A stretch of 64,000 nucleotides of DNA from Candidatus Magasanikbacteria bacterium RIFCSPHIGHO2_01_FULL_41_23. Its GTDB lineage: Bacteria > Patescibacteriota > Patescibacteriia > Magasanikbacterales > UBA922. The notes under the pieces are model-generated. The model made no database searches. It had not been told where the DNA came from and saw only the letters and a list, made by a program, of their open reading frames with translations. The position numbers were made by a program, and so were the translations under genes. The stretch is taken from the NCBI GenBank assembly GCA_001782805.1, contig MFPT01000008.1:13162-77161 (forward strand), written 5' to 3'. This document shows positions 4,990 to 33,771 of this stretch, one piece after another. Position 1 is the first letter of the stretch, and every line of letters starts with the position of its first letter.

Positions 4990-5082
4990 TTGCCTCACAG
5001 GAATAGCACCCCGCTTGGGGAGCGAACCCCGACTCGGGGGTGAAGTTCTGCTTTACTCCGGCTAGTCTGGGGTGAGCTTCCT
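4990..5082 (+). ncRNA. conserved ~95-nt structured element, copy B, immediately 5' of the Cys-rich lipoprotein gene
   Basis: See copy A. Here the shared 3' block ggggtgagcttcct is followed by a GGAAG hairpin, then GGAGG (5114-5118) and ATG 5126. Confidence 0.4.
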
Positions 5083-5125
5083 GGCGGAAGGTATGTTCTG
5101 TTCTGTTTTTTTTCGGAGGTGTCTT

Positions 5126-6817: not shown

Positions 6818-7109
6818 GTTCCCTCCCACCTCACGATCTCGTACGCAAGTACTTGAGATCACCACGCCACCTGTCGTGAAGAAAACAACAGGCAATCCAC
6901 ATTTTTTATTTTTCTATTAAGGAAAGTAGAAAGTGCAGATTCAAATAATCCTCTTTACAATTTAGGTTTTAACTAGGCCAGTGATTATAACAGTAATAAT
7001 TTAGTGTTTTAATCGCTGGCTTAGTTTTGTTTTACCGCATGAGGGATTTCGTAGCTGGCATTCCTTACACCAAAATGCGGTTCAACTGCAAACGAGCAAG
7101 GAGCTCCAA

Positions 7110-9149: not shown

Positions 9150-9304
9150 ACGCGCCCTCCCACCCGCTCTTTCCTTCTCCACCGCCCTCCTGAGGCATGC
9201 GGTGGCACACGATAGTGTGAGCCTCTCCCTTTGCGCAAGCCAAGGGACTCTCATCATTTTCTTCATCTGGAATGGAGAAACGTGACTAGAGTCATGTTTG
9301 ACGT

Positions 9305-9351
9305 CACACCGAAATTATAACTTGACATATTATAATTTCGGTGTGTATACT
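9305..9351 (+). promoter_or_regulatory. perfect 16-bp palindrome CACACCGAAATTATAA-n9-TTATAATTTCGGTGTG overlapping a promoter (TTGACA 9322-9327, 18-nt spacer, TATACT 9346-9351) for the DUF4143 ATPase gene
   Basis: Seen in sequence. The -35 box sits inside the 9-nt spacer of the palindrome, the classic geometry of a repressor operator. The ATG at 9360 gives a very short leader. Confidence 0.4.
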
Positions 9352-9359
9352 TATCCTGT

Positions 9360-10595: not shown

Positions 10596-10603
10596 AAGAA
10601 GCT

Positions 10604-12124: not shown

Positions 12125-12131
12125 TTTTTTT

Positions 12132-13130
12132 ATGTCTTCAATTCCGCTTCCAATTGACTGTGTGATTGGCATCAATTATATTTGTAATTCGCGTTGTGTT
12201 ATGTGCGATATTTGGAAAATAAAATCATTTCCGGAATTGTTGCCCGAAGAATATCTTAAATTACCGGCCAGTTTGTTGGATGTGAATATTTCCGGAGGCG
12301 AAACATTTTTGCGCAAAGATATTCCGGAAGTGATTAGAGCAGTACGAACGGCTTGTCCCCAAGCGCGGGTGGTTATTTCCACCAATGGTTTTATGCCCGC
12401 GTTCATTGAACAACAAATGAAAAAAATTTTGGAAATTGATCCGACCATTGGCGTGGCCATATCGATTGACGGGGTTGGTGCAATGCATGAAACCGTTCGC
12501 CGAATTCCTGATGCGTATAAAAAATCAACGGAAACTCTGGAACGTTTGCAATCGTTGGGCATGAAAAATTTACGATTTGCGTTTACGATTATTCCGGAAA
12601 ACGTAACGCATTTCAGTAAAGTGTATGATGATGCCTGTGAGCGGCGGATTCAATTTACACATTCGTATGCCCAGAGTTCGGATAATTATTTTGGCGGTAT
12701 CCATATTATGAATGATCCGGATTTGCGGGTGTTGCGCCAACAATACGAACATATTATCGGGCGTGAATTGCAATCGTGGAATCTAAAGCGCTGGGCGCGG
12801 GCTTTTTATGCGTATAGTTTGTATCGGTTTATCAATGAAAAAAAACAAGTTTTAAATAATGATCCGGGGACACGGTTTTTCTTTATGGCGTCTGACGGAG
12901 TGGTATATCCATCGGTTGTTCACAATTACGCAATGGGGAATTTGAAAAATTTTAATTCGTGGGGAGAATTGTGGAATAGTGAGGAAGCTGAAACCGCGCG
13001 CGCAAAAGTACGAACTGAAGGCAAACCAGCCTGGATGATTTGTACAGCGCGGACGGCGATTAAAAAACATCCGTGGCAGGTAGCGAGCTGGGTGGTTAAA
13101 AATAAATTTTTTGGTTTGGAATTGGTTTGA
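12132..13130 (+). CDS. radical SAM protein
   Basis: CNSRCVMC = CxxxCxxC cluster near the N-terminus. The internal ATG 12132 is chosen because track start 12054 overlaps the previous gene by 70 nt. Confidence 0.7.
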   Translation: MSSIPLPIDCVIGINYICNSRCVMCDIWKIKSFPELLPEEYLKLPASLLDVNISGGETFLRKDIPEVIRAVRTACPQARVVISTNGFMPAFIEQQMKKILEIDPTIGVAISIDGVGAMHETVRRIPDAYKKSTETLERLQSLGMKNLRFAFTIIPENVTHFSKVYDDACERRIQFTHSYAQSSDNYFGGIHIMNDPDLRVLRQQYEHIIGRELQSWNLKRWARAFYAYSLYRFINEKKQVLNNDPGTRFFFMASDGVVYPSVVHNYAMGNLKNFNSWGELWNSEEAETARAKVRTEGKPAWMICTARTAIKKHPWQVASWVVKNKFFGLELV

Positions 13131-13135
13131 TTTTT

Positions 13136-14341
13136 ATGCGAGTTTTGCTCGTCAACAAATTTTGGTATCATCGGGGTGGAGCCGAGCAAGTGGTTTTTGT
13201 GACCAAGCAATTGTTGGAAGGAGCTGGGCATACGGTGGCGATTTTTGGAATGCATGATAGTCGCAATGAAATTACTGAACCGTATTTAGCTGATTTTGTT
13301 GATACGGCCAAACCGAGTTGGCGTGATGTTTGGCGAATTTTGTATAATCGCGAAGCCAAGAATAAATTTAGTGAACTTATAAAAAAATTTAAACCTGATA
13401 TTATTCATTTTCATAATATTTATCATCAATTATCTTTTTCCTTGATTGATGCGGGGCGAGAACTGGGGATCCCGATGGTGATGACACTGCATGATTATCA
13501 TTGGTTGTCGCCAAATTATAAATTGTTTCATCATGGACAGATTGATCAAAAATTAATCGGGAAAAAGTTTTTTCGGCCATTATTTACTAATTGTTTGGAG
13601 GATTGGCAAAAAACAGTGGTTGGGATGATTGATTTTATATTTCGTTCGCAAAAAAAATATAGAAATGCGATTGATCAATTTATTTGTCCCAGTGAATTTA
13701 TTAAACAGCTTCATGTGCGCGCCGGATGGAATGAAAGTCAACTGGCAGTGGTTGGTAATCCGATTAATCAATTTAATCAATTGCCTGATACGGATAATTT
13801 TGTGGATGGTTTATATGTGGCCTATGTTGGGCGTCTGGCCAAAGAAAAGGGGATTGAAACATTTATTTTTGCGGCAAAAATCACACCGGAGATTCCGTAT
13901 AAGATTTTTGGGACTGGTCCGGATGAAAGTAGATTGCGCGCGTTGGTAGAAAATAACGGAGTAGCTAATGTTTCGTTTGCCGGTTTTAAAATCGGTGTGG
14001 AATTAAAACAGGCGATTAACAACGCTCGCATAGTGGTTGTGCCGTCGGTGTGGTATGAAAATGCGCCGTACAGTATTTTGGAACCAATGGCATTGGGTAA
14101 AATTGTTATTGGTTCTAATATTGGCGGTATTCCGGAATTGTTACCAAAAGAATTTTTGGTGGAGCCGGGCAATCCCGAAGCTTTGGCAATCGTAATAAAA
14201 ATGTGGTTTAACAAATCTCTTGAAGAGCGAAATAGGTGGGGGAATGTTTTGCGCACAGAGGCGTTGGCGCGTCACGATTCTCATCTGTATCTTAAAAAAA
14301 TTGAAGATTTATATGAAAAATTGTTAATAAATGCCGGTTGA
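13136..14341 (+). CDS. glycosyltransferase family 4 (GT1 fold)
   Basis: C-terminal motif VVPSVWYENAPYSILEPMALGKIVIGSNIGGIPELL (E-x7-E). ATG 13136 is used; track start 13127 is TTG. Confidence 0.8.
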   Translation: MRVLLVNKFWYHRGGAEQVVFVTKQLLEGAGHTVAIFGMHDSRNEITEPYLADFVDTAKPSWRDVWRILYNREAKNKFSELIKKFKPDIIHFHNIYHQLSFSLIDAGRELGIPMVMTLHDYHWLSPNYKLFHHGQIDQKLIGKKFFRPLFTNCLEDWQKTVVGMIDFIFRSQKKYRNAIDQFICPSEFIKQLHVRAGWNESQLAVVGNPINQFNQLPDTDNFVDGLYVAYVGRLAKEKGIETFIFAAKITPEIPYKIFGTGPDESRLRALVENNGVANVSFAGFKIGVELKQAINNARIVVVPSVWYENAPYSILEPMALGKIVIGSNIGGIPELLPKEFLVEPGNPEALAIVIKMWFNKSLEERNRWGNVLRTEALARHDSHLYLKKIEDLYEKLLINAG

Positions 14342-14370
14342 CAATGGATTATTTTTTAGTATACTAGGTG
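14338..14370 (+). promoter_or_regulatory. promoter plus SD for the toxin-antitoxin operon: TTGACA-16-TATACT, then AGGTG
   Basis: ttgacaatggattattttttagtatactaggtg, then tat, then ATG 14374. Seen in sequence. Confidence 0.45.
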
Positions 14371-14373
14371 TAT

Positions 14374-14631
14374 ATGATGATGAAAATTGAGAGAAATAAC
14401 AATAGGTTTGATCAGATAAAATCTTGGATTCATTCTTTATTTTGCAATGAATCAGATAAATCGGTTAATTTTCAAACCAAACAATTACTCAATCAAAAAT
14501 TTAGTGATAGTTGTGACATCGTTTCATTTTCTGACTCGGCATCAGCTATAAATCATCTTGATGCTATTATTAAAAAACAACAAGGAGGGTATGGAGATAC
14601 ATTACAGGAGGAGTTTTATCAAAGAATTTGA
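14374..14631 (+). CDS. putative antitoxin (small protein upstream of and overlapping the RelE/YafQ-like toxin)
   Basis: 85-aa ORF with its own promoter and SD, overlapping the toxin by ~40 nt. No family motif recognised, so the call rests on context. Confidence 0.35.
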   Translation: MMMKIERNNNRFDQIKSWIHSLFCNESDKSVNFQTKQLLNQKFSDSCDIVSFSDSASAINHLDAIIKKQQGGYGDTLQEEFYQRI

Positions 14632-14848
14632 AAAAGTACCACTAAAAATTCAAATAGCTTGTCGAGATCGGATTAAACTTTTTTCTTCAGATCAATTTCA
14701 TCCGCAACTTCATAATCATGCCTTATTGGGGAATTTTTTAGGATATCGTAGTATAAATGTTATGGCTGACTGGCGAGCAATCTTTGTCAAAGAAGGCGAA
14801 GACTGTACATTTTTTTATGTTAGGACACATAGTCAGTTGTACCACTGA
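14591..14848 (+). CDS. type II toxin, RelE/YafQ family (mRNA interferase)
   Basis: The C-terminus HALLGNFLGYRSINVMADWRAIFVKEGEDCTFFYVRTHSQLY parallels the YafQ/RelE pattern (H-x-L-x-G-x-x-x-G-Y-R ... I-Y ... R-x-G-x-H-x-x-L-Y). AAGGAGG precedes the ATG. Confidence 0.6.
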   Translation: MEIHYRRSFIKEFEKVPLKIQIACRDRIKLFSSDQFHPQLHNHALLGNFLGYRSINVMADWRAIFVKEGEDCTFFYVRTHSQLYH

Positions 14849-16847
14849 AAATAAAAAAAACGCGCGCTTTTTGGGTTTATTTTTGCTAATTTTTTTGGGT
14901 ATTTGTGCTCCTATTTTTGTATATCAAACAAAAGCTCAAAGCGGGGGAGCGAAATTGGTGAACTATCATTTAGGTCAGCTATATTCTGGAATGACCAATG
15001 ATTTATCTAAGTATGACATATTGGTGCTGTCTCCGGCACAGATTGCGACTCATCAAGGAATAATGGGCGATATAAAAAAGTTGAATCCACAGATAATTAT
15101 TTTAGCATACGTCCCAAGTCAAAGTTATAACACTAATTATTGGCCAAGAGATGTGGTTTTTAGTGCTCTTAACGTGTCTGATGCTTGGTGGTTGCGCGAT
15201 AGTCGTGGCAAAATTATATCAGCGTGGCCCGGTATAAAAAATATAAATTTGGATCAAACATGGAGTGAATATTTTCTTCCATTTGTGCGGGATCATATTA
15301 GCGTCCTCTCCGGAGTGGATGGGATTTTTTTTGATATGGTTTCGCCTAATATTTCGTGGTTGAATAATGGTGACATTGATTTGAATGGCGATGGTGTGCG
15401 TGATATTTCCAGTCAAGCCGATGCACTGTGGCTTAATCGCACTGAATATTTTTTTAAGCGAGCCAAAGAAATAATGCCTACGATGTATATTGTTGATAAT
15501 GGAACTTCCGCTGCTGTGGTTCAGCCTTATGTTCATGGTCGGATGTATGAAAATTTTCCTACGCCTTGGGAAGGCGATGGTTCGTGGGGTACGGTAATGA
15601 ATCGAGTGCATGAAACACAAAAAAATAATCGTGTTCCTCATATTTCAATTATAAATTCCAATACTGCTAATACTGGCGTACAAAATTACCGTGATGTTCG
15701 GTTCGGTTTGGGGAGTGCGCTATTGGAGAACGGTTATTTTTCCTATGATTATGGTGACCAAAATCATGGTCAAACATGGTGGTATGATGAATATAATGTT
15801 CGACTTGGCCAGCCAATTGGTGGTTCAGTATCGCGGGCGAATTATGCAACGTATCAACCGGATCTGTGGCATCGGGATTTTGATCATGGTTTGGTGTTGG
15901 TAAACAGTACGCCGCAATTGGTGGCTGTGGATTTGGGCGGGGATTATGAAAAAATTAATGGCAGACAAGATCCGACGGTTAATGATGGCTCAATTGTGTC
16001 TGAAGTTGAGATTGCTCCCAACGATGGATTGGTTTTGTTGAAAACCACTTCGCGGCTTGATGATGTGATTTTTTCCAACGGTTCTTTTGCGCGGTTTTAC
16101 AAGCCTGATGGCATCCGTGTGCGGAATGGTTTTTTTGTTTTCGATGAGGAATATAAAGGTGGCGCGCAGATTTTATATTTTGATTTTGATGGCAATGCAA
16201 AACATGATACTTTGGTTGCGAGCGGGAATAAAATTACGGCCACGCGCGACGATGGTCAGCCGTTTTTCAAAATTTATCCGTACACGGCGAATTATTCCGG
16301 CAATTTAGTCTTGGCGGTTGGTGATCTTGATAACGATGGTTTTGATGAACTGTATGTTGCGCCGGATAAAGGGTCGTATCCGATTAAAATTTACAATTTG
16401 TTTGGCGAAGAAATTTTGCCTGAAGGCTGGTATCCGTTTGGTAAAAAATATCAGGATGGTTATTCTTTGGCAATTGCGGGCAAAGGATATGATGGTCGGT
16501 TAGTGATTGGAGCGAATCATGCTACGGGTCAGAATGATCATGATTCAACCGTCGGACTATATGATGCCGGATTAAAAAAAACCGCGGAATGGTCGATTTT
16601 TAAACAATCAAATCATGAACTAATGGTTGGAGCAGGGGATTTGGATGGTGATGGTATGCCGGAGATTGTCGCCGGATTTGGTAGTGGACGAAAGCCGACT
16701 CTTAAATTATATACACTTGAAGGAAAAGAATTTGGTCAGCCGATTATTTTTGCCGGTGAAATTTTTCGGAACGCGCAGATTCAAATTACTGATGTTAATT
16801 TTGATGGCGCGGCCGATATTGTGCTTCTGACAAGTGGGGCTTTATAA
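14812..16847 (+). CDS. secreted FG-GAP/VCBS-repeat (beta-propeller-like) protein with an N-terminal ~400-aa domain of unknown function
   Basis: Signal/TM FLGLFLLIFLGICAPIFVYQTKAQS. Repeats GDLDNDGFDELYVAPD, GDLDGDGMPEIVAGF and VNFDGAADIVLL. Start is uncertain (ATG 14812, or TTG ~14871). Confidence 0.6.
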
Positions 16848-16858
16848 ATTATAAAAAT

Positions 16859-17989
16859 TTATGCTTTGTACATTTCAATAATCCGCGGCATAATTGCGTC
16901 CCACCGATACTGTTTTTCAATAATCAATACATTTTCTTCGCCAAGTTTTTTTTGTTCATCAGATGATAATGATAAAAATGTGTTTAATTTGGTTTTAAGA
17001 TCAGACGAATCATTTTGATTAAAAATAATTTTTGGATTATTGATTAATTCCAAATGTTCCGGAATGTTTGACAGCAATACCGGTTTAGCCCAGTTCATGG
17101 CTTCAAGCACTGTAATGGGCAGGCCTTCATTGAGTGAAGGATGCACCAAGACTTTGGCATGGGCAAACAATGTTTCCAATGCTTGGCCACTTTGAAAATC
17201 AGTAAACACAATGTCATTGCATAAATTGGCCTTCTGATGAAGATTTTTTATATACTCATTGGTATACGCCGATCCGCCGACAATTACCAATTTTAAGTTG
17301 GTGATTGCCGGATTATTTATGTTTTGTTTGAGAGCGCTAAACGCATCAATTAAAATATGCGCTCCTTTGTGCGGTACGAGACGCGCGACCATAAGGATAT
17401 ATTGACTACTGACTAATCCAAATTTTTTCAATAATTCTTCCGAATTAATTGTTTCAACTTGGTTTACTGCATTCGGAATGTACGTTGTTTCTCGATCAAA
17501 TTCATTCAGGCAATATAATTGTAAACTGCGCGACACCGTGATTGTTTTGTGCGCAAATAAAACCGTTGCCTTTTCACCGATCCGTAAAAATAATTTTGCG
17601 ATCAGCCCCCATTTTTGGTGATAGCGGTCAATGGAGTGAAATGTTGTTATCACTTTTGTTCGTGGCGAAAAAAGACGAGGGATCCAAGACACAAGTGCCG
17701 GACCAACTCCATGATAATGGATTACGTCATATTTTTGACTCAGGGCATGTAGTGAAGACAAGAGGGTGTGCGTAAACGTATCAAGATGTTTTGTTTTAAT
17801 TGATGCGAGATGTTTGATTATTACGCCGTCAATATTTATTGTTCCTTGGTTTTTGGTGTACCAAGATCGGCCATAGACAGTTACGTCATGGTTCAATTTT
17901 GCCAAATGCACTGCCAGGTCGTGGACATGGCGTTCCACTCCACCAAAGCTGGCCGGCATTCCTTTTTGTCCGATCATGGCGATACGCAT
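16859..17989 (-). CDS. glycosyltransferase family 4
   Basis: MRIAMIGQKGMPASFGGVERHV at the N-terminus and LVHPSLNEGLPITVLEAMNWAKPVLLSNIPE at the C-terminus, typical of GT4. Confidence 0.8.
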   Translation of the reverse strand: MRIAMIGQKGMPASFGGVERHVHDLAVHLAKLNHDVTVYGRSWYTKNQGTINIDGVIIKHLASIKTKHLDTFTHTLLSSLHALSQKYDVIHYHGVGPALVSWIPRLFSPRTKVITTFHSIDRYHQKWGLIAKLFLRIGEKATVLFAHKTITVSRSLQLYCLNEFDRETTYIPNAVNQVETINSEELLKKFGLVSSQYILMVARLVPHKGAHILIDAFSALKQNINNPAITNLKLVIVGGSAYTNEYIKNLHQKANLCNDIVFTDFQSGQALETLFAHAKVLVHPSLNEGLPITVLEAMNWAKPVLLSNIPEHLELINNPKIIFNQNDSSDLKTKLNTFLSLSSDEQKKLGEENVLIIEKQYRWDAIMPRIIEMYKA

Positions 17990-18142
17990 ATTGTTTAACT
18001 AACAAATAACAGAGTATGATAGCCCAGTTTTGGTTTTTTGTCAATGGAACGGAGGCTAAAAAATCCTAACCAATAGCCCGGCCTCGCCCTCCCGTATAGG
18101 TATGTTGCGTACCTTTCGAGACGAGCCATTGGTTAGGGTCTT

Positions 18143-19204
18143 TTAGACCCCGGAATATTCTTGAACCAAGCCAACAAATTGGTGAAACAGACGCCGGTTT
18201 TGTTTTGAGATTGGCAGGTCATGAACCAAGTCATGACAGAGACCGGTATGATCCTGAACCATATCAAGAATTTTTTCGCGAATTTTATATTTCCCGCATA
18301 GTTCACGAACATAATTGGCCTGTGACAAAGGAATTTGATCCAACCAAAATGTATAGTTGAATTTTTCTTTTTCTGAGCGATTTAACTCAGGCAAAAGCAG
18401 TGCGCACCACAGCGTTGGTTGTTTATTGTTAAGATCCTCAATGAGGTTTTTACTGTTACCATTTTCATTGAAGCCGGCCAGATCATCAAGCGCTTGGAAA
18501 GCAATACCAAGAGATTCACCTATGGCTTTCAGAAATAAGCGGGTGGTTTCATCTGGCGTATGACTTAGTATAAATCCGGATACCAGCGGTAAGACAAAAC
18601 TATATGCTCCGGTTTTACTTTCGTATAAATGCAAGACGTCGTCTATGTTATGTGTTGGTTCATGAGCCACGGCATCATATACTTGCGCGCGTGTAGTACG
18701 AGTGAGTATGTTCAGAAAAAGAGTTAGTAATTCCACTTTGGTTTCATTGGCGCATTCCAAACTAATCAGTTGATTCAGTACAAATTGGATTAAATAATCT
18801 CCGACCGCGATAGCAGTGCCAACCCCATGTCGTTCATATGCCAACACGCCTCGTCCTTCAAAAATTGCTTTTAGACGAGCGGGAAAACTTAAGGTATCGC
18901 GTCTGATGGGGCTTTCATCAATAATGTCATCATGAATTAAGAGCGCATAATGCAAGACCTCGATTAATCCGGCGACTTGTTCTACGATTTTTGTTTCTTT
19001 TGCGCCAAAACTCTCTGCTGACAACAGACAAAGACCGCCTCTCCAGGCTTTGCCGATTTGTGAGGCGAGCTGTAATTCTTTAAAAATATAATGGTCGTTC
19101 GAAAAATCTTCGCGTGCTTGATTTTCTACATCATCAATAACAGTTCTTACTTGTGCGGCAATATTTTGTCGCCATGTTGCCAGATTGCGCTCTATGTCTT
19201 TCAT
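18143..19204 (-). CDS. trans-polyprenyl diphosphate synthase (trans-IPPS_HH; GGPPS/IspA/ComQ-like)
   Basis: GKAWRGG substrate motif, FARM LIHDDIIDESPIRRD, SARM GIAFQALDDLAGF. Last gene of the peptide-kinase-cyclase operon, 3 nt from the upstream gene. Confidence 0.85.
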   Translation of the reverse strand: MKDIERNLATWRQNIAAQVRTVIDDVENQAREDFSNDHYIFKELQLASQIGKAWRGGLCLLSAESFGAKETKIVEQVAGLIEVLHYALLIHDDIIDESPIRRDTLSFPARLKAIFEGRGVLAYERHGVGTAIAVGDYLIQFVLNQLISLECANETKVELLTLFLNILTRTTRAQVYDAVAHEPTHNIDDVLHLYESKTGAYSFVLPLVSGFILSHTPDETTRLFLKAIGESLGIAFQALDDLAGFNENGNSKNLIEDLNNKQPTLWCALLLPELNRSEKEKFNYTFWLDQIPLSQANYVRELCGKYKIREKILDMVQDHTGLCHDLVHDLPISKQNRRLFHQFVGLVQEYSGV

Positions 19205-19206
19205 AA

Positions 19207-21099
19207 CTAATTATAATGTTTGATTAAAGCTTGCATGGTTTGATGTTCGCGCATTACTGTGTGCAGAGCATCTCCCAATCGGTTAATGGTTTTAGAAAGC
19301 ATAATTGGTGCGGAAGCACGCCATGATATTTTTTTCATTATGTATAGCGCTTGTTCGATTTCTTGTTGTGCCTGACGAATGGCAATTACAATCCCTTCTT
19401 CCCAAAATATTTCTTTTGCCGCTCCACTATTATTGAGCGCGGGGAAAGCATAACATGACAGAAATAATGGCTTGGTCACGCCGGTCAGACGATTGGCCGC
19501 ATAATCTTCATTCCAATCATGTAAATCATCGCACATCTGGCGCGCGTTCAGATAATGGGTAAATAGTTTTTTTAACTGCTGTTGCGTTTCTTTTGTTTGG
19601 CGAGAAATAATTGAAATTAATTGTGGTCCCAGAGTGTGACCAAACGAGCGTTCGCATAAATTAAGAGTCGTGGATCCGAGCAATTCTTTGGCATACGCAG
19701 AATCCGCAAAAAAATGAGTTCGTTCTTTCAATTCATGGGCATGAGCCAAATCAATATGATCAAGAGTGTCAGTTACCAATTCGGTTGGTATGCGATATTC
19801 GGTTGCGACTGCATGGTATCCCAGTGTTGCTTCGCGCAAACAAATATTGGCCAATGATAAATTTTGGGAAATAGTTCCCTCGTCATAGCATCCATCGTAC
19901 AATTGATATGAGAGCCAGCCCCACAAATTGGCTGTTCCCAGTTCGATGTATAATTGCAAAGGGAGTTCAGCTTCAAACGCGCGAGCAATATCAAAACTGA
20001 TTAGGGTAATTTCGCGTGCCAGTGGTGTACCGACTAATGTACTGAATTCTTGCAGGCCTACGGTGAATAAATTATGATCAAGCTTGTTTAATTTTCCGGC
20101 CACTGTGGTAATTATTACATCATGGAGCTGATTTTCCACTGATGAAATGATTGGTGATTTACTGCATCTTCCTACTTCATAATCATCATAATAGTTTATC
20201 GCGAGCGCGCAAACCGTGGCTGTTAATGCTACGCATCCGGATATTTCCGTGGTTGCATTCTCTTGTTTTTCCAGAATGCACGGATCAGCGGCATATGCTT
20301 GTCCGGCTCCAATTATTTTTTTAGCGTATTCAGTAATTATTATGGAGTCACTGCCGATTTTTATCATGAGTATTAATGTTAATCCCAATTCCAGAAGTGA
20401 TAATCCATCAATTTTTTGTGAATAACCATTTACTATTTTTTTAATCTCCGTGTCACACTGGCCATTTAATCCTCGATCCAATAAAAATAACATTAGTGGT
20501 TCAGAGACATAATATGGTGATCGCCAATTATTAGTGGCTATTCTATCAATAATATAATTATTCAAATTGTTTAAAACAACGTCTTGTTGTTTTAACGCGT
20601 AAGCAATTCCGGCATTAACCACCGGATCAATGTCAGACCATTTTTCCTCGTTTTTAGTCATTATCCATGTTTTGTATGGTCCGCCCGGTTTTTCTTCGTT
20701 ATTTGTGAGAGATTGGATGTACTGTATTAATGTTTGTATTTCCAGATTTTTGGTTACTGATTGAACCACAATCGCCAGACTGCTGTCATCAAGATCAGCC
20801 GGATACGGAAATTGCGTATTGTGCGTATCTGTTTGTGCCCAATATGACCATAGTTCGTTGTCAGATTTTTCTGATTGCAAAAAATAATTTATTTTTTTTA
20901 TTATATCGTGCGTTTCTTTTCTTTTGAGCATAGCCAGTATGCTGCCAATTAAGGCGGGATAGAAAATAGTACTATGGTTCACCGGAGATTTGTCCAATGA
21001 ATTACGCGTTATACTGGTAAAACCGCCATCATTGTTTTGATTGTGGGTAACAAAAATAATTGCGGAGCGCACATACTCGGCGCTATCAAAAATAGGCAT
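19207..21099 (-). CDS. terpene-cyclase-like protein: class-II motifs (QW-like QNNDGGF; DxDD as FPYPADLDDSSLAIV) plus a C-terminal DDxxD (MCDDLHDWNEDY)
   Basis: Motifs read directly from the translation. Sits between the HK and the polyprenyl synthase with 7-nt and 3-nt gaps (operon). Function inferred from motifs only. Confidence 0.5.
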   Translation of the reverse strand: MPIFDSAEYVRSAIIFVTHNQNNDGGFTSITRNSLDKSPVNHSTIFYPALIGSILAMLKRKETHDIIKKINYFLQSEKSDNELWSYWAQTDTHNTQFPYPADLDDSSLAIVVQSVTKNLEIQTLIQYIQSLTNNEEKPGGPYKTWIMTKNEEKWSDIDPVVNAGIAYALKQQDVVLNNLNNYIIDRIATNNWRSPYYVSEPLMLFLLDRGLNGQCDTEIKKIVNGYSQKIDGLSLLELGLTLILMIKIGSDSIIITEYAKKIIGAGQAYAADPCILEKQENATTEISGCVALTATVCALAINYYDDYEVGRCSKSPIISSVENQLHDVIITTVAGKLNKLDHNLFTVGLQEFSTLVGTPLAREITLISFDIARAFEAELPLQLYIELGTANLWGWLSYQLYDGCYDEGTISQNLSLANICLREATLGYHAVATEYRIPTELVTDTLDHIDLAHAHELKERTHFFADSAYAKELLGSTTLNLCERSFGHTLGPQLISIISRQTKETQQQLKKLFTHYLNARQMCDDLHDWNEDYAANRLTGVTKPLFLSCYAFPALNNSGAAKEIFWEEGIVIAIRQAQQEIEQALYIMKKISWRASAPIMLSKTINRLGDALHTVMREHQTMQALIKHYN

Positions 21100-21105
21100 A
21101 GAAAT

Positions 21106-22608
21106 TTAATTTTTTGACCACGAGATGATAAAAGAAGTACCTTTCGTCGGTTCGCTCTCGACTGAAATATCCGCACTTAATTCCTGACGCAATAATTCTT
21201 GAGCGATATTTAAACCAAGTCCTATCCCTCGTTCAGATTTGGTGCTAAAAAACGGATCAAAAATAAATGGTAAAAGTTTTGAATCAATTCCGCATCCCGT
21301 ATCCTTAATAATCAATTGACATTTTTGTTTATCTCGAGCGATTTGTCCTGAGTGGCTTGTGGTGAGCGACTTGTGGTGAGCACAGTCGAACCAAGTCGAA
21401 CCGAGTCGAGGGAAATCGATGGATTCAATCGTGAATGAAATAAATACGGTTCGTTCGCGATCGATTGGATTTTCCGCACAGGATTCAATGGCATTGGTTA
21501 AGATATTCACCCAAGCTCGGTACAGACGCAGTGGATTGGCAGTTACTTTACACGATGCGAAATCAGGGCACTCAATTTTTGTACTGACCTGATTTGCATT
21601 ATATTGTACTGCGTGAATGGCTTGTTTGACTGTTTCTCCAATTTCAATTACCCGTGATTCATTTCTATTTGATAATTCGCGTCTTATTCTATCAATCAGT
21701 TCTGACAACTGATTGGTCGCCGATAAAGCGACATTAATTTGTTCGCGTATTTCTCCTGCGTTAATGGAATTATTTTTACTTAATTGATCAATATGCATGG
21801 TTACGGCCGTGAGCGGATTAATTAAATCATGCATCAGTCCGGCTGATAATTTGCCGATTTCAGTTAGTCGCGATGTTTCTTTTAATCGCTCCAGCTGTGT
21901 ATGCTCCAATTCTTTGGTACGGGCAAGAACGCGCTCTTCCAGTGTGTCTCTTTCTTTTTTAACCAATACTTCGGAACGTCGCGCGCGACGAAGACTATTT
22001 TCAATCTCTTGATACGCGAGCCAAGTAATTCCGGAAATTACCAATAATATAATCGTAATTTCCATACTGTAATTGGCATACAATGTATTGTGCATCCAGC
22101 TTTCATCCACCGATATAAGGTTGTGCTGGTGTGCATAATCAAGGAGGCCAAGATAACTACCCAATGCAATCGCCATTATAATCGCTGATCGCGTATTTAA
22201 TAGAATACCAATCAAAACAATAATCAGACTAAGAGTCAAAAGCGGTATTGGTAATAGCGTACCCCAGCGGGTGAGTGAATATAGGGTTGGTATAATCAAC
22301 AGACCCAAAAATGCGTATGAGGAAAATTTCCACCAGCCTTTTCTGGCTAGGTATAACAGACCAAGAAAAAGGCCGGAAATTATGACTGATATCCAAATAG
22401 GAATTCCTCGCGGCGACGTTCCCGGTATGGTTGCTAAAGAAGCCACTGAAACAGTGAACAAAATTGAAAGAGCTGACAAAAAGATGAGCAAGACGCATAA
22501 AATATATTCGCGCCGCGCATCATCCTCTCGTCGTGAGGTTGGCTGAGTTATTTTTTGCCAAAATGTCCTCAGCCGGAAAAGAATGGAAAAGAAAAAATCT
22601 TTTGACAC
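21106..22608 (-). CDS. sensor histidine kinase (HisKA + HATPase_c), N-terminal polytopic membrane domain
   Basis: H-box LSAGLMHDLINPLTAV, N-box NILTNAIESC, G-boxes IIKDTGCGID and GIGLGLNIAQELL. About 6 TM helices over the first 200 aa. GTG start 2 nt after the stop of the small peptide ORF. Confidence 0.85.
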   Translation of the reverse strand: MSKDFFFSILFRLRTFWQKITQPTSRREDDARREYILCVLLIFLSALSILFTVSVASLATIPGTSPRGIPIWISVIISGLFLGLLYLARKGWWKFSSYAFLGLLIIPTLYSLTRWGTLLPIPLLTLSLIIVLIGILLNTRSAIIMAIALGSYLGLLDYAHQHNLISVDESWMHNTLYANYSMEITIILLVISGITWLAYQEIENSLRRARRSEVLVKKERDTLEERVLARTKELEHTQLERLKETSRLTEIGKLSAGLMHDLINPLTAVTMHIDQLSKNNSINAGEIREQINVALSATNQLSELIDRIRRELSNRNESRVIEIGETVKQAIHAVQYNANQVSTKIECPDFASCKVTANPLRLYRAWVNILTNAIESCAENPIDRERTVFISFTIESIDFPRLGSTWFDCAHHKSLTTSHSGQIARDKQKCQLIIKDTGCGIDSKLLPFIFDPFFSTKSERGIGLGLNIAQELLRQELSADISVESEPTKGTSFIISWSKN

Positions 22609-22610
22609 AT

Positions 22611-22721
22611 CTAGCCTGACCAGGGGGGTGTATTAACCGCTGTCTTTTGGGCAAGACTGGCTAACATTTTCTTTTGACGACCTTCGGTGCTTTCAAGAAT
22701 TGCGCTAATGAGGTTTGACAT
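22611..22721 (-). CDS. small peptide, 36 aa, MSNLISAILESTEGRQKKMLASLAQKTAVNTPPWSG; candidate precursor/signal peptide with Trp at position -3
   Basis: Canonical SD AAGGAGA 3-4 nt before the ATG (SD is rare elsewhere in this window). Its stop lies 2 nt before the HK start codon. C-terminal ...PPWSG resembles ComX pheromone tails (...QWGD). Confidence 0.4.
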   Translation of the reverse strand: MSNLISAILESTEGRQKKMLASLAQKTAVNTPPWSG

Positions 22722-22750
22722 ATGTCTCCTTATATTAGTAAATAAATAGG

Positions 22751-22781
22751 GTGCAAGCGATGTCGACCTAGTGCAATCGCT
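22751..22781 (-). promoter_or_regulatory. direct repeat GTGCAAGCGAT / GTGCAATCGCT (20-nt phasing) upstream of the peptide-HK operon; candidate OmpR-type regulator binding site, with TTGCAC / TATAAG promoter-like hexamers
   Basis: Seen in sequence in the 310-nt gap between the RR and the operon. OmpR-family regulators bind tandem direct repeats. Confidence 0.25.
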
Positions 22782-22917
22782 GTGATTTTCCCTATAGAAC
22801 ATTAATTGTTTGTTCCTATATATATCATAGCGGTTTTGAGCTTAAATTTTCTTCAATTATTTCTTAAATTCTTTTTTCATAAAAAAGTTACAACACAGCC
22901 TAGTTTTTACCATAGTC

Positions 22918-23592
22918 TTAAATTTTTACGCTCAAACGATAACCGCGACCTTGAACCGTGTGGATAAGTTTGTGCCGATTGCCAATGTCCAATTGTTTAC
23001 GCAACTCGCAAATATGCGCTTCAAGCGTGTTTGACCACACATCAGCATTCATATCCCACACATGCTCCATAATTTGCGCGCGGGTTATTATTTCATCGGG
23101 TCGACGGATGAGATATTCCAAAAGCATATATTGTTTGCGTGACAAATCAACAAAATATTTTCCGCGATGAACAACTTGCTTGGCTGTATCCAATACCACA
23201 TCATCGATTTTGTAAATGGTGTTATTCGGTAGGCTTGGTCGACGAGTCAAGGCTCTTAAGCGCGCCAGTAATTCTGCGGTGGAAAATGGTTTGGTCAAAT
23301 AATCATCAGCGCCAAGATTCAAGAGACTGACTTTTTTGTCCACTTCATGATTAATTGATAAAACCAAAATGGGAACATACTTGCCTCGGCCGCGAATATG
23401 AGAGCAGACTTGTTCGCCATTTTTCTTGGGCAAATTATAATCCAGAATGATAAGATCATAATCATTCACACAGGCTAATGACGTCGCGGTTTCACCGTCA
23501 CCGGCGGTATCAACAGCGTATGATTCATACTTTAACGCTGTTTTAAGACTGCTGAGGAGAATGGGATCATCATCAACAATAAGAATTCGCAT
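22918..23592 (-). CDS. response regulator, OmpR/PhoB family (REC + winged-helix)
   Basis: MRILIVDDDPILL...DLIILDYNLP receiver domain, C-terminal trans_reg_C-like region (...HTVQGRGYRLSV). The internal ATG at 23592 is taken as the start; the track extends to 23628. Confidence 0.85.
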   Translation of the reverse strand: MRILIVDDDPILLSSLKTALKYESYAVDTAGDGETATSLACVNDYDLIILDYNLPKKNGEQVCSHIRGRGKYVPILVLSINHEVDKKVSLLNLGADDYLTKPFSTAELLARLRALTRRPSLPNNTIYKIDDVVLDTAKQVVHRGKYFVDLSRKQYMLLEYLIRRPDEIITRAQIMEHVWDMNADVWSNTLEAHICELRKQLDIGNRHKLIHTVQGRGYRLSVKI

Positions 23593-27155: not shown

Positions 27156-27307
27156 TTTTAAAAATATCTAAAAAATTTTTGTTATTTAGATTTTTCCCTA
27201 TTTTTCATGTTGCCATATTTACTTATACTGGTTTTTATTATACTATATATAGAAGTGTGCAAGTGTTCCTTAGGTGTAACACTTTTTTATTCTCCACGTC
27301 TTCTATT

Positions 27308-27856
27308 ATGCCAGCAGAGATTAATCAGAAAAAACTGGTTTACCGAATTATCAAGAATCATGATCCTGAGGCATACGGACAATTATACGATTTGTTTGTT
27401 GCTCGTATTTATCGTTTCATCTTTTTCAAAGTCGGAAGTAAAGAAGAAGCTGAGGATTTGACCAGTGATGTTTTTTTGAAAACGTGGCAGTATTTAACCA
27501 AAAATAAAAGTTTAGAAATTAAAAGTTTTAGCGGTTTGATTTATCAGATCGCGCGCAATGCTTTGGTTGATTTGTATCGAGCAAAAGCAAATCGCCAAGA
27601 ATTTTCGTTGGATCTGGCAAATGAATTTATTATTGATGAGGAAAAATTTGGGGCCATTGACGCGAGCCACGATGTAGCTAGAATTTTACAGGCTTTGAAA
27701 AAAATTAAACAAGAGTATCAAGAAGTGTTGGTATTCAAATATATTGAAGAGTTATCAATCAAGGAGATCGCGGAAATCTTAAAAAAGACACCGATTAATG
27801 TACGCGTCACATTGCATCGGGCAATGATTGTTTTAAAAAAGTCGCTCAAAGTATGA
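27308..27856 (+). CDS. RNA polymerase sigma factor, sigma-70 ECF-like
   Basis: Region 2 LFVARIYRFIFFKVGSKEEAEDLTSDVFLKTW. Region 4 HTH LSIKEIAEILKKTPINVRVTLHRAMIVLKK. Internal ATG 27308 is used as the start. Confidence 0.8.
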   Translation: MPAEINQKKLVYRIIKNHDPEAYGQLYDLFVARIYRFIFFKVGSKEEAEDLTSDVFLKTWQYLTKNKSLEIKSFSGLIYQIARNALVDLYRAKANRQEFSLDLANEFIIDEEKFGAIDASHDVARILQALKKIKQEYQEVLVFKYIEELSIKEIAEILKKTPINVRVTLHRAMIVLKKSLKV

Positions 27857-29019
27857 ATCATGTTAAGCGACAATTAAGGCAGATAAAAGAAATAAAAGGT
27901 TTGGTTAATCCCGATCTTTTTTGGGTTACAAACAATCGCGCGCGACTGTTACAACAAATTAATAATACCGTAGTGCCGATTGAAAAACCGATAATTGGAG
28001 AAACAGCTCGTGTTTTCTGGTTTCAATTTCGTTCCAGCACTGCCTTCCGTGTTATGCGTCCGGTTTTGACCGCGCTGACTGTGGCTGCGCTCGCAACCAG
28101 TGGCTGGATTGCCAGTGTCAGTGCTTCGTTCAATAGTTTGCCCGGAGATCGTTTGTGGGCAGTCAAACGCGCGGCTCAGAATACTGAAGTGGCAGTTAAA
28201 AGTTTTGGTGCTTCAAACGATAGAAAAGTGCAGTTGCAACTTAATCTGGCAAAAAATCGAGTTGATGATATTAAAAAGGCAGTGGCGCAAAAATTAATTA
28301 ATACTTCGCCCAGTGATTTGAAAAAGGCAGTTAAGGATTTAAGTGTCGCGACACAAGATGTCCAGACCGCGGTCAAACAAGTATCGTCCAACATTGTTGA
28401 TCAGGAAAAAGTAGCCACTACCAAAAATAATCAATTGCAAGTTGTAGAAACAGTAAAAGACGTAGCCAAAGATACGAATAATTTAACCAAAGAATTAACA
28501 TCAACCATTGTATCATCCACAGCCGCTGGAGCGGAGGTGACAAAACAAGTTTTGGAAACGGTTAGAGTGGTAAACCAAACAAGCATTAATGCCATTGAAG
28601 TGGCAGTCAGAAATCAGGATGAGCTCAGTAAGAGCGGAGGAGAAACCGGATCGGCCAGAAATATTGTTTCGGAAAAAGTAGCTGATTTGGTACGATCAAA
28701 CGAAGCTTTGACACAAGAAGTTAAAAATACAAATGATGATTTGAAAATTATCGTTGCTGCACCAACAGGAACAGCCGCAATAATTGTACCGAATGTCAGC
28801 TCAACTCTTCCCGCTACTTTAACAACAAAGGAAATTAGTAGGGAAGCTGAAGAAAAAATAACAGCGACGCGCGAATCAGTCGCCGATATTAGAAAAAATA
28901 TTGACAGTGGAAATTTGCAGGAAGCAGTAAATGGTTTGCGCGCGCTGAACGAAAGCGCGGTCACAGCCCAACAACTTTTGGTAAAAATCAAAACCAAAGT
29001 TGAAATCGATAAACGATAA
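27853..29019 (+). CDS. putative anti-sigma factor: membrane-anchored DUF5667-like coiled-coil protein
   Basis: ATGA overlap with the sigma gene. Single TM VLTALTVAALATSGWIASVSA. Long K/Q/E-rich helical ectodomain. DUF5667 proteins typically follow ECF sigma factors in CPR genomes (assignment from context). Confidence 0.5.
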   Translation: MNHVKRQLRQIKEIKGLVNPDLFWVTNNRARLLQQINNTVVPIEKPIIGETARVFWFQFRSSTAFRVMRPVLTALTVAALATSGWIASVSASFNSLPGDRLWAVKRAAQNTEVAVKSFGASNDRKVQLQLNLAKNRVDDIKKAVAQKLINTSPSDLKKAVKDLSVATQDVQTAVKQVSSNIVDQEKVATTKNNQLQVVETVKDVAKDTNNLTKELTSTIVSSTAAGAEVTKQVLETVRVVNQTSINAIEVAVRNQDELSKSGGETGSARNIVSEKVADLVRSNEALTQEVKNTNDDLKIIVAAPTGTAAIIVPNVSSTLPATLTTKEISREAEEKITATRESVADIRKNIDSGNLQEAVNGLRALNESAVTAQQLLVKIKTKVEIDKR

Positions 29020-29021
29020 TG

Positions 29022-29086
29022 GCCGTTATACTGTATAGCTCTCAGTTTATTAGATTAACAAATTGTGAGCCATACAGTAACGGCTC
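29022..29086 (+). terminator. imperfect ~18-bp inverted repeat (GCCGTTATACTGTATAGCTC ... GAGCCATACAGTAACGGC) after the anti-sigma gene; no clear U-tract
   Basis: Seen in sequence 3 nt after the stop at 29019. Confidence 0.3.
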
Positions 29087-29187
29087 CCACGACATAAAGT
29101 CGGCGGGCTACTATCACTAAAAGGTCGAATCCCGATTAAGTCGGGAAAGTGTATAGTTTTATTTAAAGATACATTAGTATATTTATT

Positions 29188-32100
29188 ATGAATGATTTGA
29201 AGAAATTCGGTAAGAAGCTCTTCACTATGTCAGTGGTTAGTATGACCATTGCTTGGAGCGTTGGCTTGTCAGCCCTCGTCCCAGCCGGTGTTGTCGCCGC
29301 TACTTGTCCAGAGCTTGAAGCCGGAGACTTGTTCAAAGTTAAAGGGAACGCAGCAGTATATCTGTTGAATTCCAACATGGAACGTATGTACTTCCCCAAT
29401 TCGGAAGTTTATAACACATGGTACAAGGATTTTAGTGGTATCACTACCATTGAACCGGCCTGTGTTGACGCGTATCCATCCGGTGGTGGTGTTAACTTCC
29501 GCCCCGGTGCCCGTTTGGTAAAGAGCGCGGTTTCTCCGTCTGTCTTTGCCGTCGGTCCAGACAACATGAAACATAAAATCGCTGATGAGAAAGTTGCCGC
29601 TGCCCTTTATGGCAGTGCTTGGAGCAAACTTGTCCGCGTAATTCCTGATGTTTTTGACTCCAACTACAAAGTTGGCGCAGAACTTAAGGAAGCCAAACTT
29701 CATGATGGTCAATTGGTTATGAAGTCAGGTGATACGACTGTCTACTATGTTTGGATGGGAATGTTGAAGAAAGTAGATGGAACATTGCCTTCTCAGACAA
29801 GTGGTGATGTACGAACGGTTTCCGTTGAAACTTTAGCTTCAGTGTCAATGGACACAGCTACTGTTACCGGCGCAACCGTGACCACAAACCCAGCTCAGAA
29901 AGGTACTGCTACGAGTCCGACTACTCCGACAAGTGCGGGTAAGTTGAAGGTTAGTATTGCCGCCAATACCCCAAGTGGTACTTACGCAGTTAAGAGTGCG
30001 GCTCGCGTTCCATTTACTAACGTAGTATTTGAAAATACGAGTGGCGACACAGTTACCATTGATTCATTTAAAGTTGTTCGCGGTGGAGCTCCAGCAGTAA
30101 ATGCTGACTTTACCACTGTCAACGTAGTTGATGAAATGGGTAATCTTTTGAATGATGCTGGCAAATCACTCAACTCCGAGAATATGGTTACTTTCACCGA
30201 GGACATTGTCCTTACAGCTGGTGCAAAGAAAACCTATACTTTGGTTGGTGATATGGCTGGATCAGGTTTGACCGGTGGCAATGTTCCTACATTGGGTTTG
30301 TATTCGGTAGATACTAAGGCCACTGTTGAAGGTGTTTTACCAATGTATGGTAACGCGGTAGTGACCAATGCTAACGTTACGCTGGGTACTGTTACTTTGG
30401 CCGAAGGTTCAACTATCGGTACGGTAACCAAACAGGTCGGCACTAAGGATGTTAACTTAGCCAGTTTGAAAATTACCGTTGCTACGGAAGATTTTCAAAT
30501 CGGACGGGTTGTATTCTACAACTCCGGTACTGCGGCTGATGGTGACATTGAAAAATTCGTTTTGAAATACAATGGTAACATTGTTGCTCAAGGCGCAATG
30601 AAAAATAAGTATTTGACCTTTGATTTATCCGCTTGTACGGCTGATTGTAAGTTGGAAAAAGGCAATGACAAGACCTTTAATGTCTATGCCGATTTGATCG
30701 CCGGTTCAGCTCGTACCTCAAATCTTGATATCCAGCGGACAGTTCATGTCTTAGCCAAGGATCTTAAGAACAATTACTATGTAACTCCAACCAACAATGC
30801 CTCGGCCATGACCAATACGGTCACCGTGTCACAAGGTAAGTTGGATGTTTCTAAGACTAACAATGTTCCGACAGGCAATGTTCCTCGGAACGCAACCAAT
30901 CAATCACTTGGTACTTGGAATTTCAAGGTTACAGGTGAACCGGTTGATGTTCGTACCATTGTTTTCCGCCTCACGACCACTGGTACCATCGTACCAACCG
31001 GTCTTGACAGCATTACTTTGTACAACGCAGCTGGTAAAGCTTTGATCGGCGGTGTTGATGGTGCTGGATCAGCCAGCCCAGGATACGCCACTAGTACTGA
31101 TTCCTTTACTCTCCCAGTCGGTGATAATATCCTGACTTTGAAAGCAAAAGTTGACAGTACAGCTGTGGCCAATGACACAATTGCTGTGGCCATTGACTTG
31201 ACTAACACCAGCAACTTTGATGCTCGTGGGGTAAACAGTGGTGAAACTATCACTCTGGGAACCTATGCCACACCACAATCAGCAGTGTCGGCTAACACCA
31301 TGACAGTCAAAGGTTCAGCTTTGCGCGTGACCACATTGTCAACTCCTCCCGCCACAACCTATGCGGCTGGTACGAATGACGTGGTCTTTGCCAAAGTTCT
31401 CTTCGATACTTCTGATTCTTCAGAAGATGCCAAAGTAACTCAATTCATCATTACCAATACTACTGCAGGCGGTGCGAAGGGTATAAATATCCAAAGCGTT
31501 CGTTTGTTCGTGGATCTTGACGGAGATAGTTATGATGGAAAAGGCTCAGCAGTGGCATTGACTGAAACCCAAAGTGGAGCACAGTCAACCGCTAACACGG
31601 CCGAAGACCTAACCTTTAATCTTAGTGGCACTGATCAATTCTTGGTCAAAGCCGGTAAGAAAGTAGAAGTATGGGTCAAAGGTAATATTGCTGGTGGCGC
31701 GGCCGCTGGTACTCATACCTTCTCGGTTGATACAGCCAATGATATTGCTGCGACCGGTGCAACTACTGGCGGAACAATTACTGAAGTAATTGATTCAGCT
31801 GCCGGTCAGGCTATGACGGTTGGTGCGGCTGGTGGTACAGTTGAAGTATCGCTTGATCCTTCCAACCAAACTGCCAAGCAGTACGCCGCTGGTACTAAGG
31901 GTGTAACCCTAGCCACTTTCCGTTTCTATGCCACTTCCAGTGAAGACGTAGAATTGGACAAGATTAACTTGACCCAGTTAGTAACCGCCACTGCCAGCTC
32001 ATCGTTCAAAGACTATGATATGGTCTACTTGTACAATGCGGCCGGAGATATGGTTGGTTCAGCCAGTCCAACAAGTACATCGGTCTTCATTGATTTGGCA

Positions 32101-32946: not shown

Positions 32947-33079
32947 TTTTGCCTCAACTCGTTCGGAATACAAGACTCCTCCTTTTGGGGGAGTTTTGTA
33001 TATCCCGAGTTTAGTCGCAGGGGTTATCCCTTGATAATTTATGTGTCCTCTGTTATTATATGGAGGTATAACTTTTTAA

Positions 33080-33766: not shown

Positions 33767-33771
33767 TTATT

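Follow-up and report, generated by a model that had tools for sequence, protein, structure and literature searches.

The 64-kb stretch of DNA analyzed here, hereafter the window (64,000 nucleotides [nt]; positions 13,162 to 77,161 of contig MFPT01000008.1, assembly GCA_001782805.1), derives from Candidatus Magasanikbacteria bacterium RIFCSPHIGHO2_01_FULL_41_23. On its minus strand it carries a gene cassette that encodes, in 5′ to 3′ order, an OmpR-type response regulator, a peptide of 36 amino acids (aa), a histidine kinase, a 630-aa protein, and a 353-aa homolog of isoprenyl diphosphate synthases. An earlier note on this DNA had described the locus as a ComQXPA-like signaling cassette; every gene that it named is present, on the minus strand and where the note had placed it. 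The regulator is separated from the peptide open reading frame (ORF) by 196 nt. The gaps between the peptide, kinase, 630-aa protein, and synthase genes measure 2, 6, and 2 nt, correcting the values of 2, 7, and 3 nt given before. In the following list, FARM and SARM denote, respectively, the first and the second Asp-rich motif of trans-isoprenyl diphosphate synthases (trans-IDSs).

22918..23592, minus strand: OmpR/PhoB-type response regulator with receiver and winged-helix domains (Pfam, NCBIfam)

22841..22870, minus strand: three direct repeats (read from the sequence and supported by a shuffle test)

22824..22829, minus strand: candidate −10 hexamer TATGAT (read from the sequence)

22756..22781, minus strand: 5′ leader hairpin, AGCGAT-loop-ATCGCT, with loop GGTCGA at 22763..22768

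22611..22721, minus strand: ORF of the putative 36-aa precursor peptide (conservation), with AAGGAG Shine-Dalgarno sequence at 22726..22731 and Trp codon at 22620..22622

21106..22608, minus strand: histidine kinase, GTG start (Pfam and hydropathy scan)

19207..21099, minus strand: gene for the 630-aa fusion protein

20164..21099, minus strand: class II terpene cyclase domain (N-terminal part of the 630-aa protein), DxDD at 20785..20796

19210..20154, minus strand: trans-IDS-like domain (C-terminal part of the 630-aa protein), second acidic motif at 19504..19539

18143..19204, minus strand: 353-aa trans-IDS homolog, FARM at 18920..18934 and SARM at 18473..18487

18060..18140, minus strand: likely operon end, inverted repeat CTAACCAAT...ATTGGTTAG followed by TTTTTT (found by eye; a terminator scan gave no call)

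The next gene, which encodes a GT4 protein, has its own promoter (TTGACA-17-TATCAT, 18016..18044; 11/12 in a consensus scan). Together with the short intergenic gaps and the inverted repeat with its T-run, this promoter delimits a transcription unit consisting of the peptide, kinase, fusion, and synthase genes.

The product of the small ORF, MSNLISAILESTEGRQKKMLASLAQKTAVNTPPWSG, comprises a leader (residues 1–16) and a core ending in ...NTPPW34SG. Its ATG lies four bases downstream of AAGGAG, bearing out the strong Shine-Dalgarno sequence reported previously. A longer ORF of 63 aa, starting at an ATG at 22802, was considered and rejected: it is the 36-aa form that has the conserved N terminus and the Shine-Dalgarno sequence, and the added stretch overlaps the conserved leader hairpin. 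At orthologous loci whose fusion enzyme is 36%–40% identical to that of the window, gene callers had already placed a 36-aa gene at the matching position, and the encoded peptides retain the length, an M-S-x-L-I N terminus, and a ...NTP(P/A)W(S/L/F)G end. The peptide is also found at more remote loci (enzyme identity 24%–33%), some of which have entirely unlike flanking genes.

We surveyed 97 loci encoding the fusion enzyme, using for upstream counts the 71 with at least 1.7 kb of upstream sequence. The peptide is present in 70 of these 71 loci, and in 68 the fusion gene is immediately preceded by the kinase gene; a homologous regulator is found upstream in 52 of the 58 loci with enough sequence. 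This four-gene core of regulator, peptide, kinase, and fusion enzyme is kept amid wholly unlike flanks, for example at survey loci L012, L013, L015, and L016. The association of the peptide with a polytopic kinase, an OmpR-type regulator, and isoprenoid-fold enzymes, previously proposed for this one locus, is thus borne out by the survey. The stand-alone synthase, by comparison, lies downstream in only 23 of 72 loci, indicating that the peptide's constant partner is the fusion enzyme and not the 353-aa synthase.

A leader-only model was built from the first 16 residues of the peptides, so that counts of Trp made with it are not circular. It detected 51 distinct peptides of 34–41 aa with the leader consensus M-K-x-L-I-K-K-I-L-T-D-K-x-x-R, in which L9 and R15 are invariant. 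Each of these 51 carries a Trp among its last nine residues, a feature of 14.8% of background small ORFs; 48 contain exactly one Trp and the remaining three contain two. Pro precedes Trp in 42 peptides, and between one and seven residues follow it. With the peptide kept at 70 of 71 loci and the Trp in every leader-detected peptide, occurrence of the small ORF is far beyond chance. Conservation of the ORF and its near-C-terminal Trp, which the earlier note had put forward as a check, therefore holds, and the alternative offered there, that the small ORF is incidental, is ruled out.

Many peptides of the family have a Lys-rich N terminus and a hydrophobic center with the Trp at its end; those of the window's own clade lack the hydrophobic center. 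Precursors encoded at L030, L036, L040, L053, L066, and other loci resemble Sec signal peptides, with small residues at −3/−1 just before x-Pro-Trp (e.g., ...MASVA/QPWSDKM, the slash marking the site). Cleavage at this site would yield a mature peptide of 4–9 residues.

Searched alone against Pfam, NCBIfam, and PDB sequences, the 630-aa protein returned no match, and it falls within the 90%-identity cluster of A2821_02845, which is labeled only "hypothetical protein" or "Uncharacterized protein". Its AlphaFold model (predicted local distance difference test score 81.5) consists of two all-helical domains. The N-terminal domain is a single-domain class II cyclase with an alpha/alpha barrel, in which D102-L-D104-D105 forms the DxDD motif. 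A profile of 43 family sequences matches the cyclase domain of drimenol synthase (E 5e-15), and D104, which is invariant (in Y-P-x-D-L-D-D), lines up with the position changed by mutation in the AsDMS D333N structure. Profile and fold thus agree with the class II terpene cyclase motifs that had been recognized in this protein.

The C-terminal domain carries the motifs YD402GCYD406E and RQ521xCD524D525LHD528WNED532, which correspond to YDDFxDxEG ... RQLNDDAHDW in the family consensus. Across the 43 sequences, with identity down to 22%, residues D102, D104, D406, Q521, D524, D528, and D532 are invariant. The likeness of this domain to canonical chain-elongating trans-IDSs is one of fold only. 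None of the 43 members matches polyprenyl_synt (PF00348) at E values up to 0.1 and three match Terpene_syn_C_2, pointing to a diverged isoprenoid-synthase fold and not to an ordinary chain-elongating synthase. Fungal prenyltransferase-cyclase fusions such as PvCPS are among the fold matches. We conclude that the 630-aa protein joins a class II terpene cyclase of the MstE/drimenol-synthase-like kind to a trans-IDS-like domain. What had been taken for an extra, cyclase-like enzyme inserted into the cassette is therefore itself both cyclase and trans-IDS-like protein. At one locus (L016), the family member P0047 (2565..4877) is 770 aa long and has an extra Response_reg match beyond the ~647 residues covered by the family profile, which suggests direct phosphorylation control of that enzyme.

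Word-indexed protein searches, whether with the single sequence or with the 43-sequence profile, returned only 7–8 close relatives of the fusion enzyme. The apparent rarity was overturned by an exhaustive profile search, in which the family comprises 1,715 cluster representatives, 830 of them at E ≤1e-30; among the best 150 of the 1,715, nearly all are ~640 aa and match over their full length. A pattern search of metagenomes gave at least 455 family matches among the first 600 listed. The two members with names at NCBI come from Magasanikbacteria and the "Patescibacteria group"; L011 is labeled Magasanikbacteria, and L014 and L015 Saccharibacteria. The same cassette is carried by L010, L012, and L013, labeled "uncultured Gammaproteobacteria bacterium", and L010 keeps Magasanikbacteria-like downstream neighbors. 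These Gammaproteobacteria labels are probably binning or labeling errors. Small stand-alone receiver-like proteins are encoded downstream at L016, L020, L056, and L061, the latter three recognized by eye.

The 353-aa protein matches PF00348 (9.8e-36; 123.7 bits against a cut-off of 27) and is 100% identical to A2821_02840, labeled hypothetical protein. Its best solved relative is octaprenyl diphosphate synthase (6e-15), and its matches to NCBIfam equivalogs all fall far below the cut-offs. The earlier note had credited it with both FARM and SARM; the FARM is indeed complete (DDIID), but the SARM, DDLAG, is incomplete, with its third Asp missing. The KT and RR motifs are kept, as is the region VII Lys. 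Orthologs of the synthase diverge faster than the fusion enzyme (19%–34% versus 36%–40% identity) and lose further residues of the SARM and of region VII; SARM variants include DDLAG, KDISG, and QDCLG, with a canonical SARM (DDLLD) only at L014, and at L011 the FARM is deleted. Absence from two thirds of loci and the degeneracy of its orthologs mark the synthase as an accessory, dispensable gene. It most likely supplies a prenyl donor, and it may act as a second prenyltransferase.

The kinase contains HisKA (PF00512) and HATPase_c domains, with the His box at H260. A hydropathy scan and inspection of residues 92–117 indicate approximately six transmembrane helices joined by loops of at most 16 residues, and no periplasmic domain. 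With the membrane region alone as the query, homologs were found in 78 related loci. Just ahead of the first membrane helix, residues 24–36 form a cytoplasmic motif, S-R-R-E-D-x-A-R-(R/K)-E-Y-I-L, which is also present at L007 and L012 and, in weaker form, at L014.

The regulator has Response_reg (1.6e-28) and Trans_reg_C (1.3e-22) domains, and its NCBIfam matches are to OmpR-family regulators only. Upstream of the peptide gene we find three direct repeats, AATTTAAG / AATTGAAG / AATTTAAG, at spacings of 12 and 10 nt. The periodic-repeat score is 8, as compared with 0.7 in shuffled sequences, and none of 100 shuffles reached it, so that sequence reading and shuffle test both uphold the earlier observation of repeats in the promoter region. 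A triple repeat of (A)A(C/T)TTAAG at 11-nt spacing recurs at the orthologous loci L004, L006, L007, and L010 despite differing flanks, and it is significant against shuffles at these four loci and in the window. The candidate −10 hexamer TATGAT lies 11 nt downstream of the third repeat. In a consensus scan, the region upstream of the peptide gene gave no full sigma-70 promoter, as would be expected if the promoter were activator dependent. Read in this way, the repeats form a putative binding site for the regulator that stands in for a −35 box, the arrangement to be expected of an OmpR/PhoB-type activator.

In 24 of 54 loci the peptide gene begins no more than 60 nt after the regulator and has a strong GGAGG, so that the whole cassette is a single operon there. 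Loci of the other type have leaders bearing the hexamer GGTCGA. It is found 34–54 nt ahead of the start codon in 23 of 66 distinct loci; shuffles yield 1.5 on average and at most 6. It usually forms the loop of a hairpin, GGUCGA or sometimes AGUCGA in the RNA, and the enclosing stems vary in sequence among loci; within the window's clade their lengths vary as well. A hairpin occupies the matching position at L001, L004–L007, L030, L036, L040, L042, L053, L064, L066, L067, L074, and L094, and in one subgroup four of eight stem pairs show compensatory changes. An Rfam search of the peptide leader region gave no match, and a covariance model built from the AT-rich hairpin subgroup recovered only its training sequences. 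This stem-loop may be a new cis-regulatory RNA motif.

Trp is the common target of the trans-IDS-like peptide prenyltransferases, among them ComQ, PalQ, and the P domain of ChrPC, and each has a Gln just upstream of the SARM (PMC13290415). For fused enzymes of the ChrPC kind, prenylation of Trp with C10–C20 donors is reported, and the MstE-like cyclase fused in ChrPC cyclizes the attached prenyl group (PMC13290415). Compared by review description, fused prenyltransferase-cyclase (PC) maturases of peptides made on ribosomes and modified after translation (RiPPs) such as ChrPC appear to be the nearest known enzymes to the fusion protein. In both, one polypeptide combines a trans-IDS-like domain, here a predicted prenyltransferase, with an MstE-like single-domain class II cyclase. 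The window's enzyme also retains the catalytic DxDD-type Asp (D102, D104) and the Asp-rich motifs with a Gln before the second motif (Q521, D524, D528, D532, D406), and a Trp-containing precursor is encoded alongside it, as at 70 of 71 loci. The systems differ in that the precursor here is short (34–41 aa) with a leader of its own, the cassette is wired to a two-component system, and the host is a candidate-phyla-radiation bacterium. The PC precursors in the primary paper on ChrPC are reportedly of proteusin, Nif11, or lasso types.

In the genes that surround the enzyme, the cassette recalls ComQXPA: a small precursor with a Trp near its C terminus, an enzyme of the isoprenoid-synthase fold, a polytopic kinase, and a regulator share one locus, and an autoinduction loop is likely. 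The trans-IDS fold of ComQ is common to the 353-aa protein and the C-terminal domain of the fusion. Yet the regulator here is of the OmpR type (Trans_reg_C) and not the NarL type, the kinase is of the HisKA class with some six helices whereas ComP belongs to the HisKA_3 class, and the order is regulator-peptide-kinase-enzyme(-synthase) instead of comQ-comX-comP-comA. In addition, a class II cyclase domain is part of the fusion enzyme. ComQ (IPR033965) and StheQ have the pseudo-SARM NDxxx, in contrast to DDLAG in the 353-aa protein and QxCDDLHD, which holds a full DDxxD, in the fusion.

The PalQ/PalX/PalP system of Paenibacillus alvei, a three-gene cluster with a histidine kinase and the Trp-ending precursor PalX, likewise pairs a trans-IDS-superfamily enzyme with a neighboring Trp-bearing small gene product (PMC10853753). 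In the StheQ/StheX system of Sphaerobacter thermophilus, a trans-IDS-superfamily enzyme likewise acts on the product of a small gene nearby, and a Trp at or next to the C terminus is prenylated (bioRxiv 10.64898/2026.08.29.745113). In contrast to the peptides described here, in which 1–7 residues follow the Trp, PalX has a leader of the nitrile hydratase type and requires the Trp at the very C terminus; the PalQ and StheQ systems have no cyclase domain, and an OmpR-type regulator is not described for them. MstE and the drimenol and drimenyl diphosphate synthases (AsDMS; PDB 9mhs, 9m7d) differ in acting on small molecules (prenylated benzoate, farnesyl diphosphate), and they either stand alone or have a HAD phosphatase as fusion partner instead of a trans-IDS-like domain.

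By kinase class, regulator class, and gene order, as read from the sequence, the cassette is not a member of ComQXPA. It combines ChrPC-type enzyme architecture with wiring of the ComQXPA/PalQXP type. Of the ComQXPA-like interpretation in the earlier note, the logic of peptide, prenyl group, and two-component system survives as the best reading, and membership in ComQXPA does not. Its casting of the 353-aa synthase as the equivalent of ComQ is reversed: the peptide's invariant partner is the fusion enzyme.

We favor a model in which the Trp of the peptide is prenylated, the prenyl group is cyclized, the kinase detects the resulting product, and feedback runs by way of the regulator. We consider this model probable, with a good measure of reserve. 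In it, the regulator would bind the three helically spaced repeats at the −35 position and drive synthesis of a single mRNA for the 36-aa precursor, kinase, 630-aa fusion, and, in this genome, polyprenyl synthase. The precursor would be made up of the conserved leader of 16 residues and a core in which Pro-Trp is followed by the last 1–7 residues. The trans-IDS-like domain would bind a prenyl diphosphate through its acidic motifs and alkylate the indole of Trp34, as ComQ, PalQ, and the ChrPC P domain do. The MstE-like domain, using the DxDD acid, would cyclize the isoprenoid chain, either after attachment or beforehand on the diphosphate-bearing chain. Where the host needs one, the 353-aa synthase would most likely provide a longer prenyl diphosphate donor. 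The lipidated peptide would be released and then sensed within the membrane by the six-helix kinase, which would phosphorylate the regulator and so close a positive loop, making the cassette a self-inducing peptide-signal system. The model draws on gene anatomy, predicted folds, motif conservation, co-occurrence, and the promoter repeats; from these we infer the chemistry, the sensing, and the regulator-binding site, and fold, motifs, and context likewise point to the C-terminal domain as the peptide prenyltransferase.

Several observations weigh against this model. In sequence the C-terminal domain does not match ComQ, Ord1, or StheQ, nor any synthase with a solved structure, and its first acidic motif is weakened in this genome (DGCYDE versus DDFxDxE in the family). 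The Gln upstream of the second motif also occurs in ordinary chain-elongating synthases and is therefore non-discriminating, weak evidence. The hydrophobic middle of many of the peptides could mean that they are small membrane proteins and not substrates. No conserved exporter or protease was found among the downstream neighbors of the surveyed loci, which are heterogeneous. Finally, the check for a source of isopentenyl and dimethylallyl diphosphate that had been suggested earlier was run on the 64-kb window, and no genes for these isoprenoid precursors were found there.

Part of this evidence would fit a kinase-regulated operon for a terpenoid lipid, a reading that we regard as unlikely. The fusion would in that case be a bifunctional class II/class I-type synthase making a free cyclic terpenoid (e.g., a membrane-ordering lipid) from prenyl diphosphate supplied by the 353-aa or a housekeeping synthase, and the small protein would not be a substrate but would serve the kinase as a small membrane or accessory partner, much as MgrB does PhoQ. 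Both folds of the fusion occur in ordinary terpenoid synthesis, and the three Terpene_syn_C_2 matches and the PvCPS-type fusions among the fold matches are in keeping with such a role. So is the i, i+4, i+8 spacing of D524, D528, and D532, which we take to resemble the NSE/DTE metal triad of class I terpene synthases, and so are the many peptides that look like small membrane proteins and the lack of a conserved exporter or protease at the surveyed loci. However, the hydrophobic center is not conserved: the peptides of the window's clade and of L012 and L013 are hydrophilic there, yet Trp, L9, and R15 are invariant throughout. An invariant set of residues around a variable center fits recognition by an enzyme better than anchoring in a membrane. 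Moreover, a pathway to a free terpenoid gives no reason for a peptide gene at 70 of 71 loci, and the nearest characterized fused architecture works on Trp peptides (PMC13290415).

Alternatively, the 353-aa synthase could be the ComQ-like Trp prenyltransferase, with the 630-aa protein merely tailoring the product by cyclization. The fast divergence of the synthase orthologs is in favor of this idea, as are translational coupling to the fusion gene across a 2-nt gap and a degraded SARM that keeps the upstream Gln and the second Asp, recalling the pseudo-SARM of ComQ and StheQ. Against it, the gene is missing from about two thirds of the loci that keep peptide, kinase, and fusion, and its FARM is deleted at L011, while the copy in the window resembles a working chain-elongating synthase (two leading SARM Asp residues, KT, RR, and region VII Lys). 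The fusion, for its part, has its own trans-IDS-like domain with invariant acidic motifs, and we think an assignment of the synthase as the ComQ counterpart quite improbable. More improbable still is a TnaC- or SecM-type regulatory leader or arrest peptide, whose Pro-Pro-Trp near the stop codon would stall ribosomes and so tune kinase translation: Pro and Trp commonly serve as key residues in arrest peptides, PPW plus two residues and the stop lie 2 nt ahead of the kinase start codon, and a conserved structured 5′ leader is present, but the distances from Trp to stop (1–7 residues) and from stop to kinase start (−76 to +343 nt) vary so that neither a fixed tunnel geometry nor coupling is conserved, and the best-conserved part is the N-terminal 16 residues, which would already be outside the ribosome.

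The cassette is situated within a very large surface-glycan region (10571..17989 and 27179..63968) that encodes many GT4 and GT2 glycosyltransferases, Wzy_C ligases, PMT_2 proteins, sugar epimerases and dehydratases, asparagine synthase, and methyltransferases. This region includes a UbiA-family prenyltransferase (41907..42770) and a sigma-70-family factor with a DUF5667 protein (27179..29019). A radical SAM/SPASM-domain protein (12054..13130) is encoded between a Wzy_C ligase and a GT4 protein, at a distance of approximately 9 kb from the peptide gene. Peptide modification is a frequent activity of SPASM enzymes, but among the orthologous loci examined no counterpart of this gene was identified. 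Positions 2000..10000 of the window form a block of 57%–60% G+C in a genome of ~39% G+C; a tRNA-Ser(TGA) gene lies at 4579..4652 (minus strand). The recognizable genes of the block encode Cys-rich Dicty_CTDC-repeat proteins. One at 7110..9149 (plus strand) is lipoprotein-like and has a third-position G+C of 0.83, compared with ~0.35 in the operon genes; another at 5072..6817 (plus strand) also has a MopE-like metal-binding motif. The block may be a foreign island, an assembly chimera, or a reflection of odd codon usage in repeat proteins.

The genomes of candidate-phyla-radiation bacteria are tiny, the organisms are regarded as host dependent, and specialized chemistry is considered sparse among them. 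To our knowledge, nothing is known of communication among these bacteria, and we know of no earlier peptide-based cell-cell signaling system in these ultra-small, mostly episymbiotic organisms. The cassette family is large and has been seen so far only in Patescibacteria records and metagenome contigs, where it is widespread yet annotated only as "hypothetical protein". That the family as a whole makes and senses peptides bearing a cyclized terpenoid on a C-terminal Trp is a proposal we hold tentatively, with real prospects but short of an expectation. If true, it would be the first peptide signaling system known to us in such bacteria, a new class of RiPP precursor that has a leader to itself, and a case in which nature joins ComX-type pheromone logic to terpene cyclase chemistry; in many loci the precursor mRNA would also bear an undescribed stem-loop with an invariant GGUCGA loop. 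Prenylation of Trp in a ribosomal peptide, terpene cyclization of the attached chain, and two-component sensing are each known separately, and the cassette would unite them. Should the chemistry be confirmed, the system would provide a short, leader-guided substrate for enzymatic peptide lipidation and cyclization, of use in biocatalysis. It would also offer a kinase family that may recognize a lipidated peptide inside the membrane, and a testable signaling system in uncultured bacteria.

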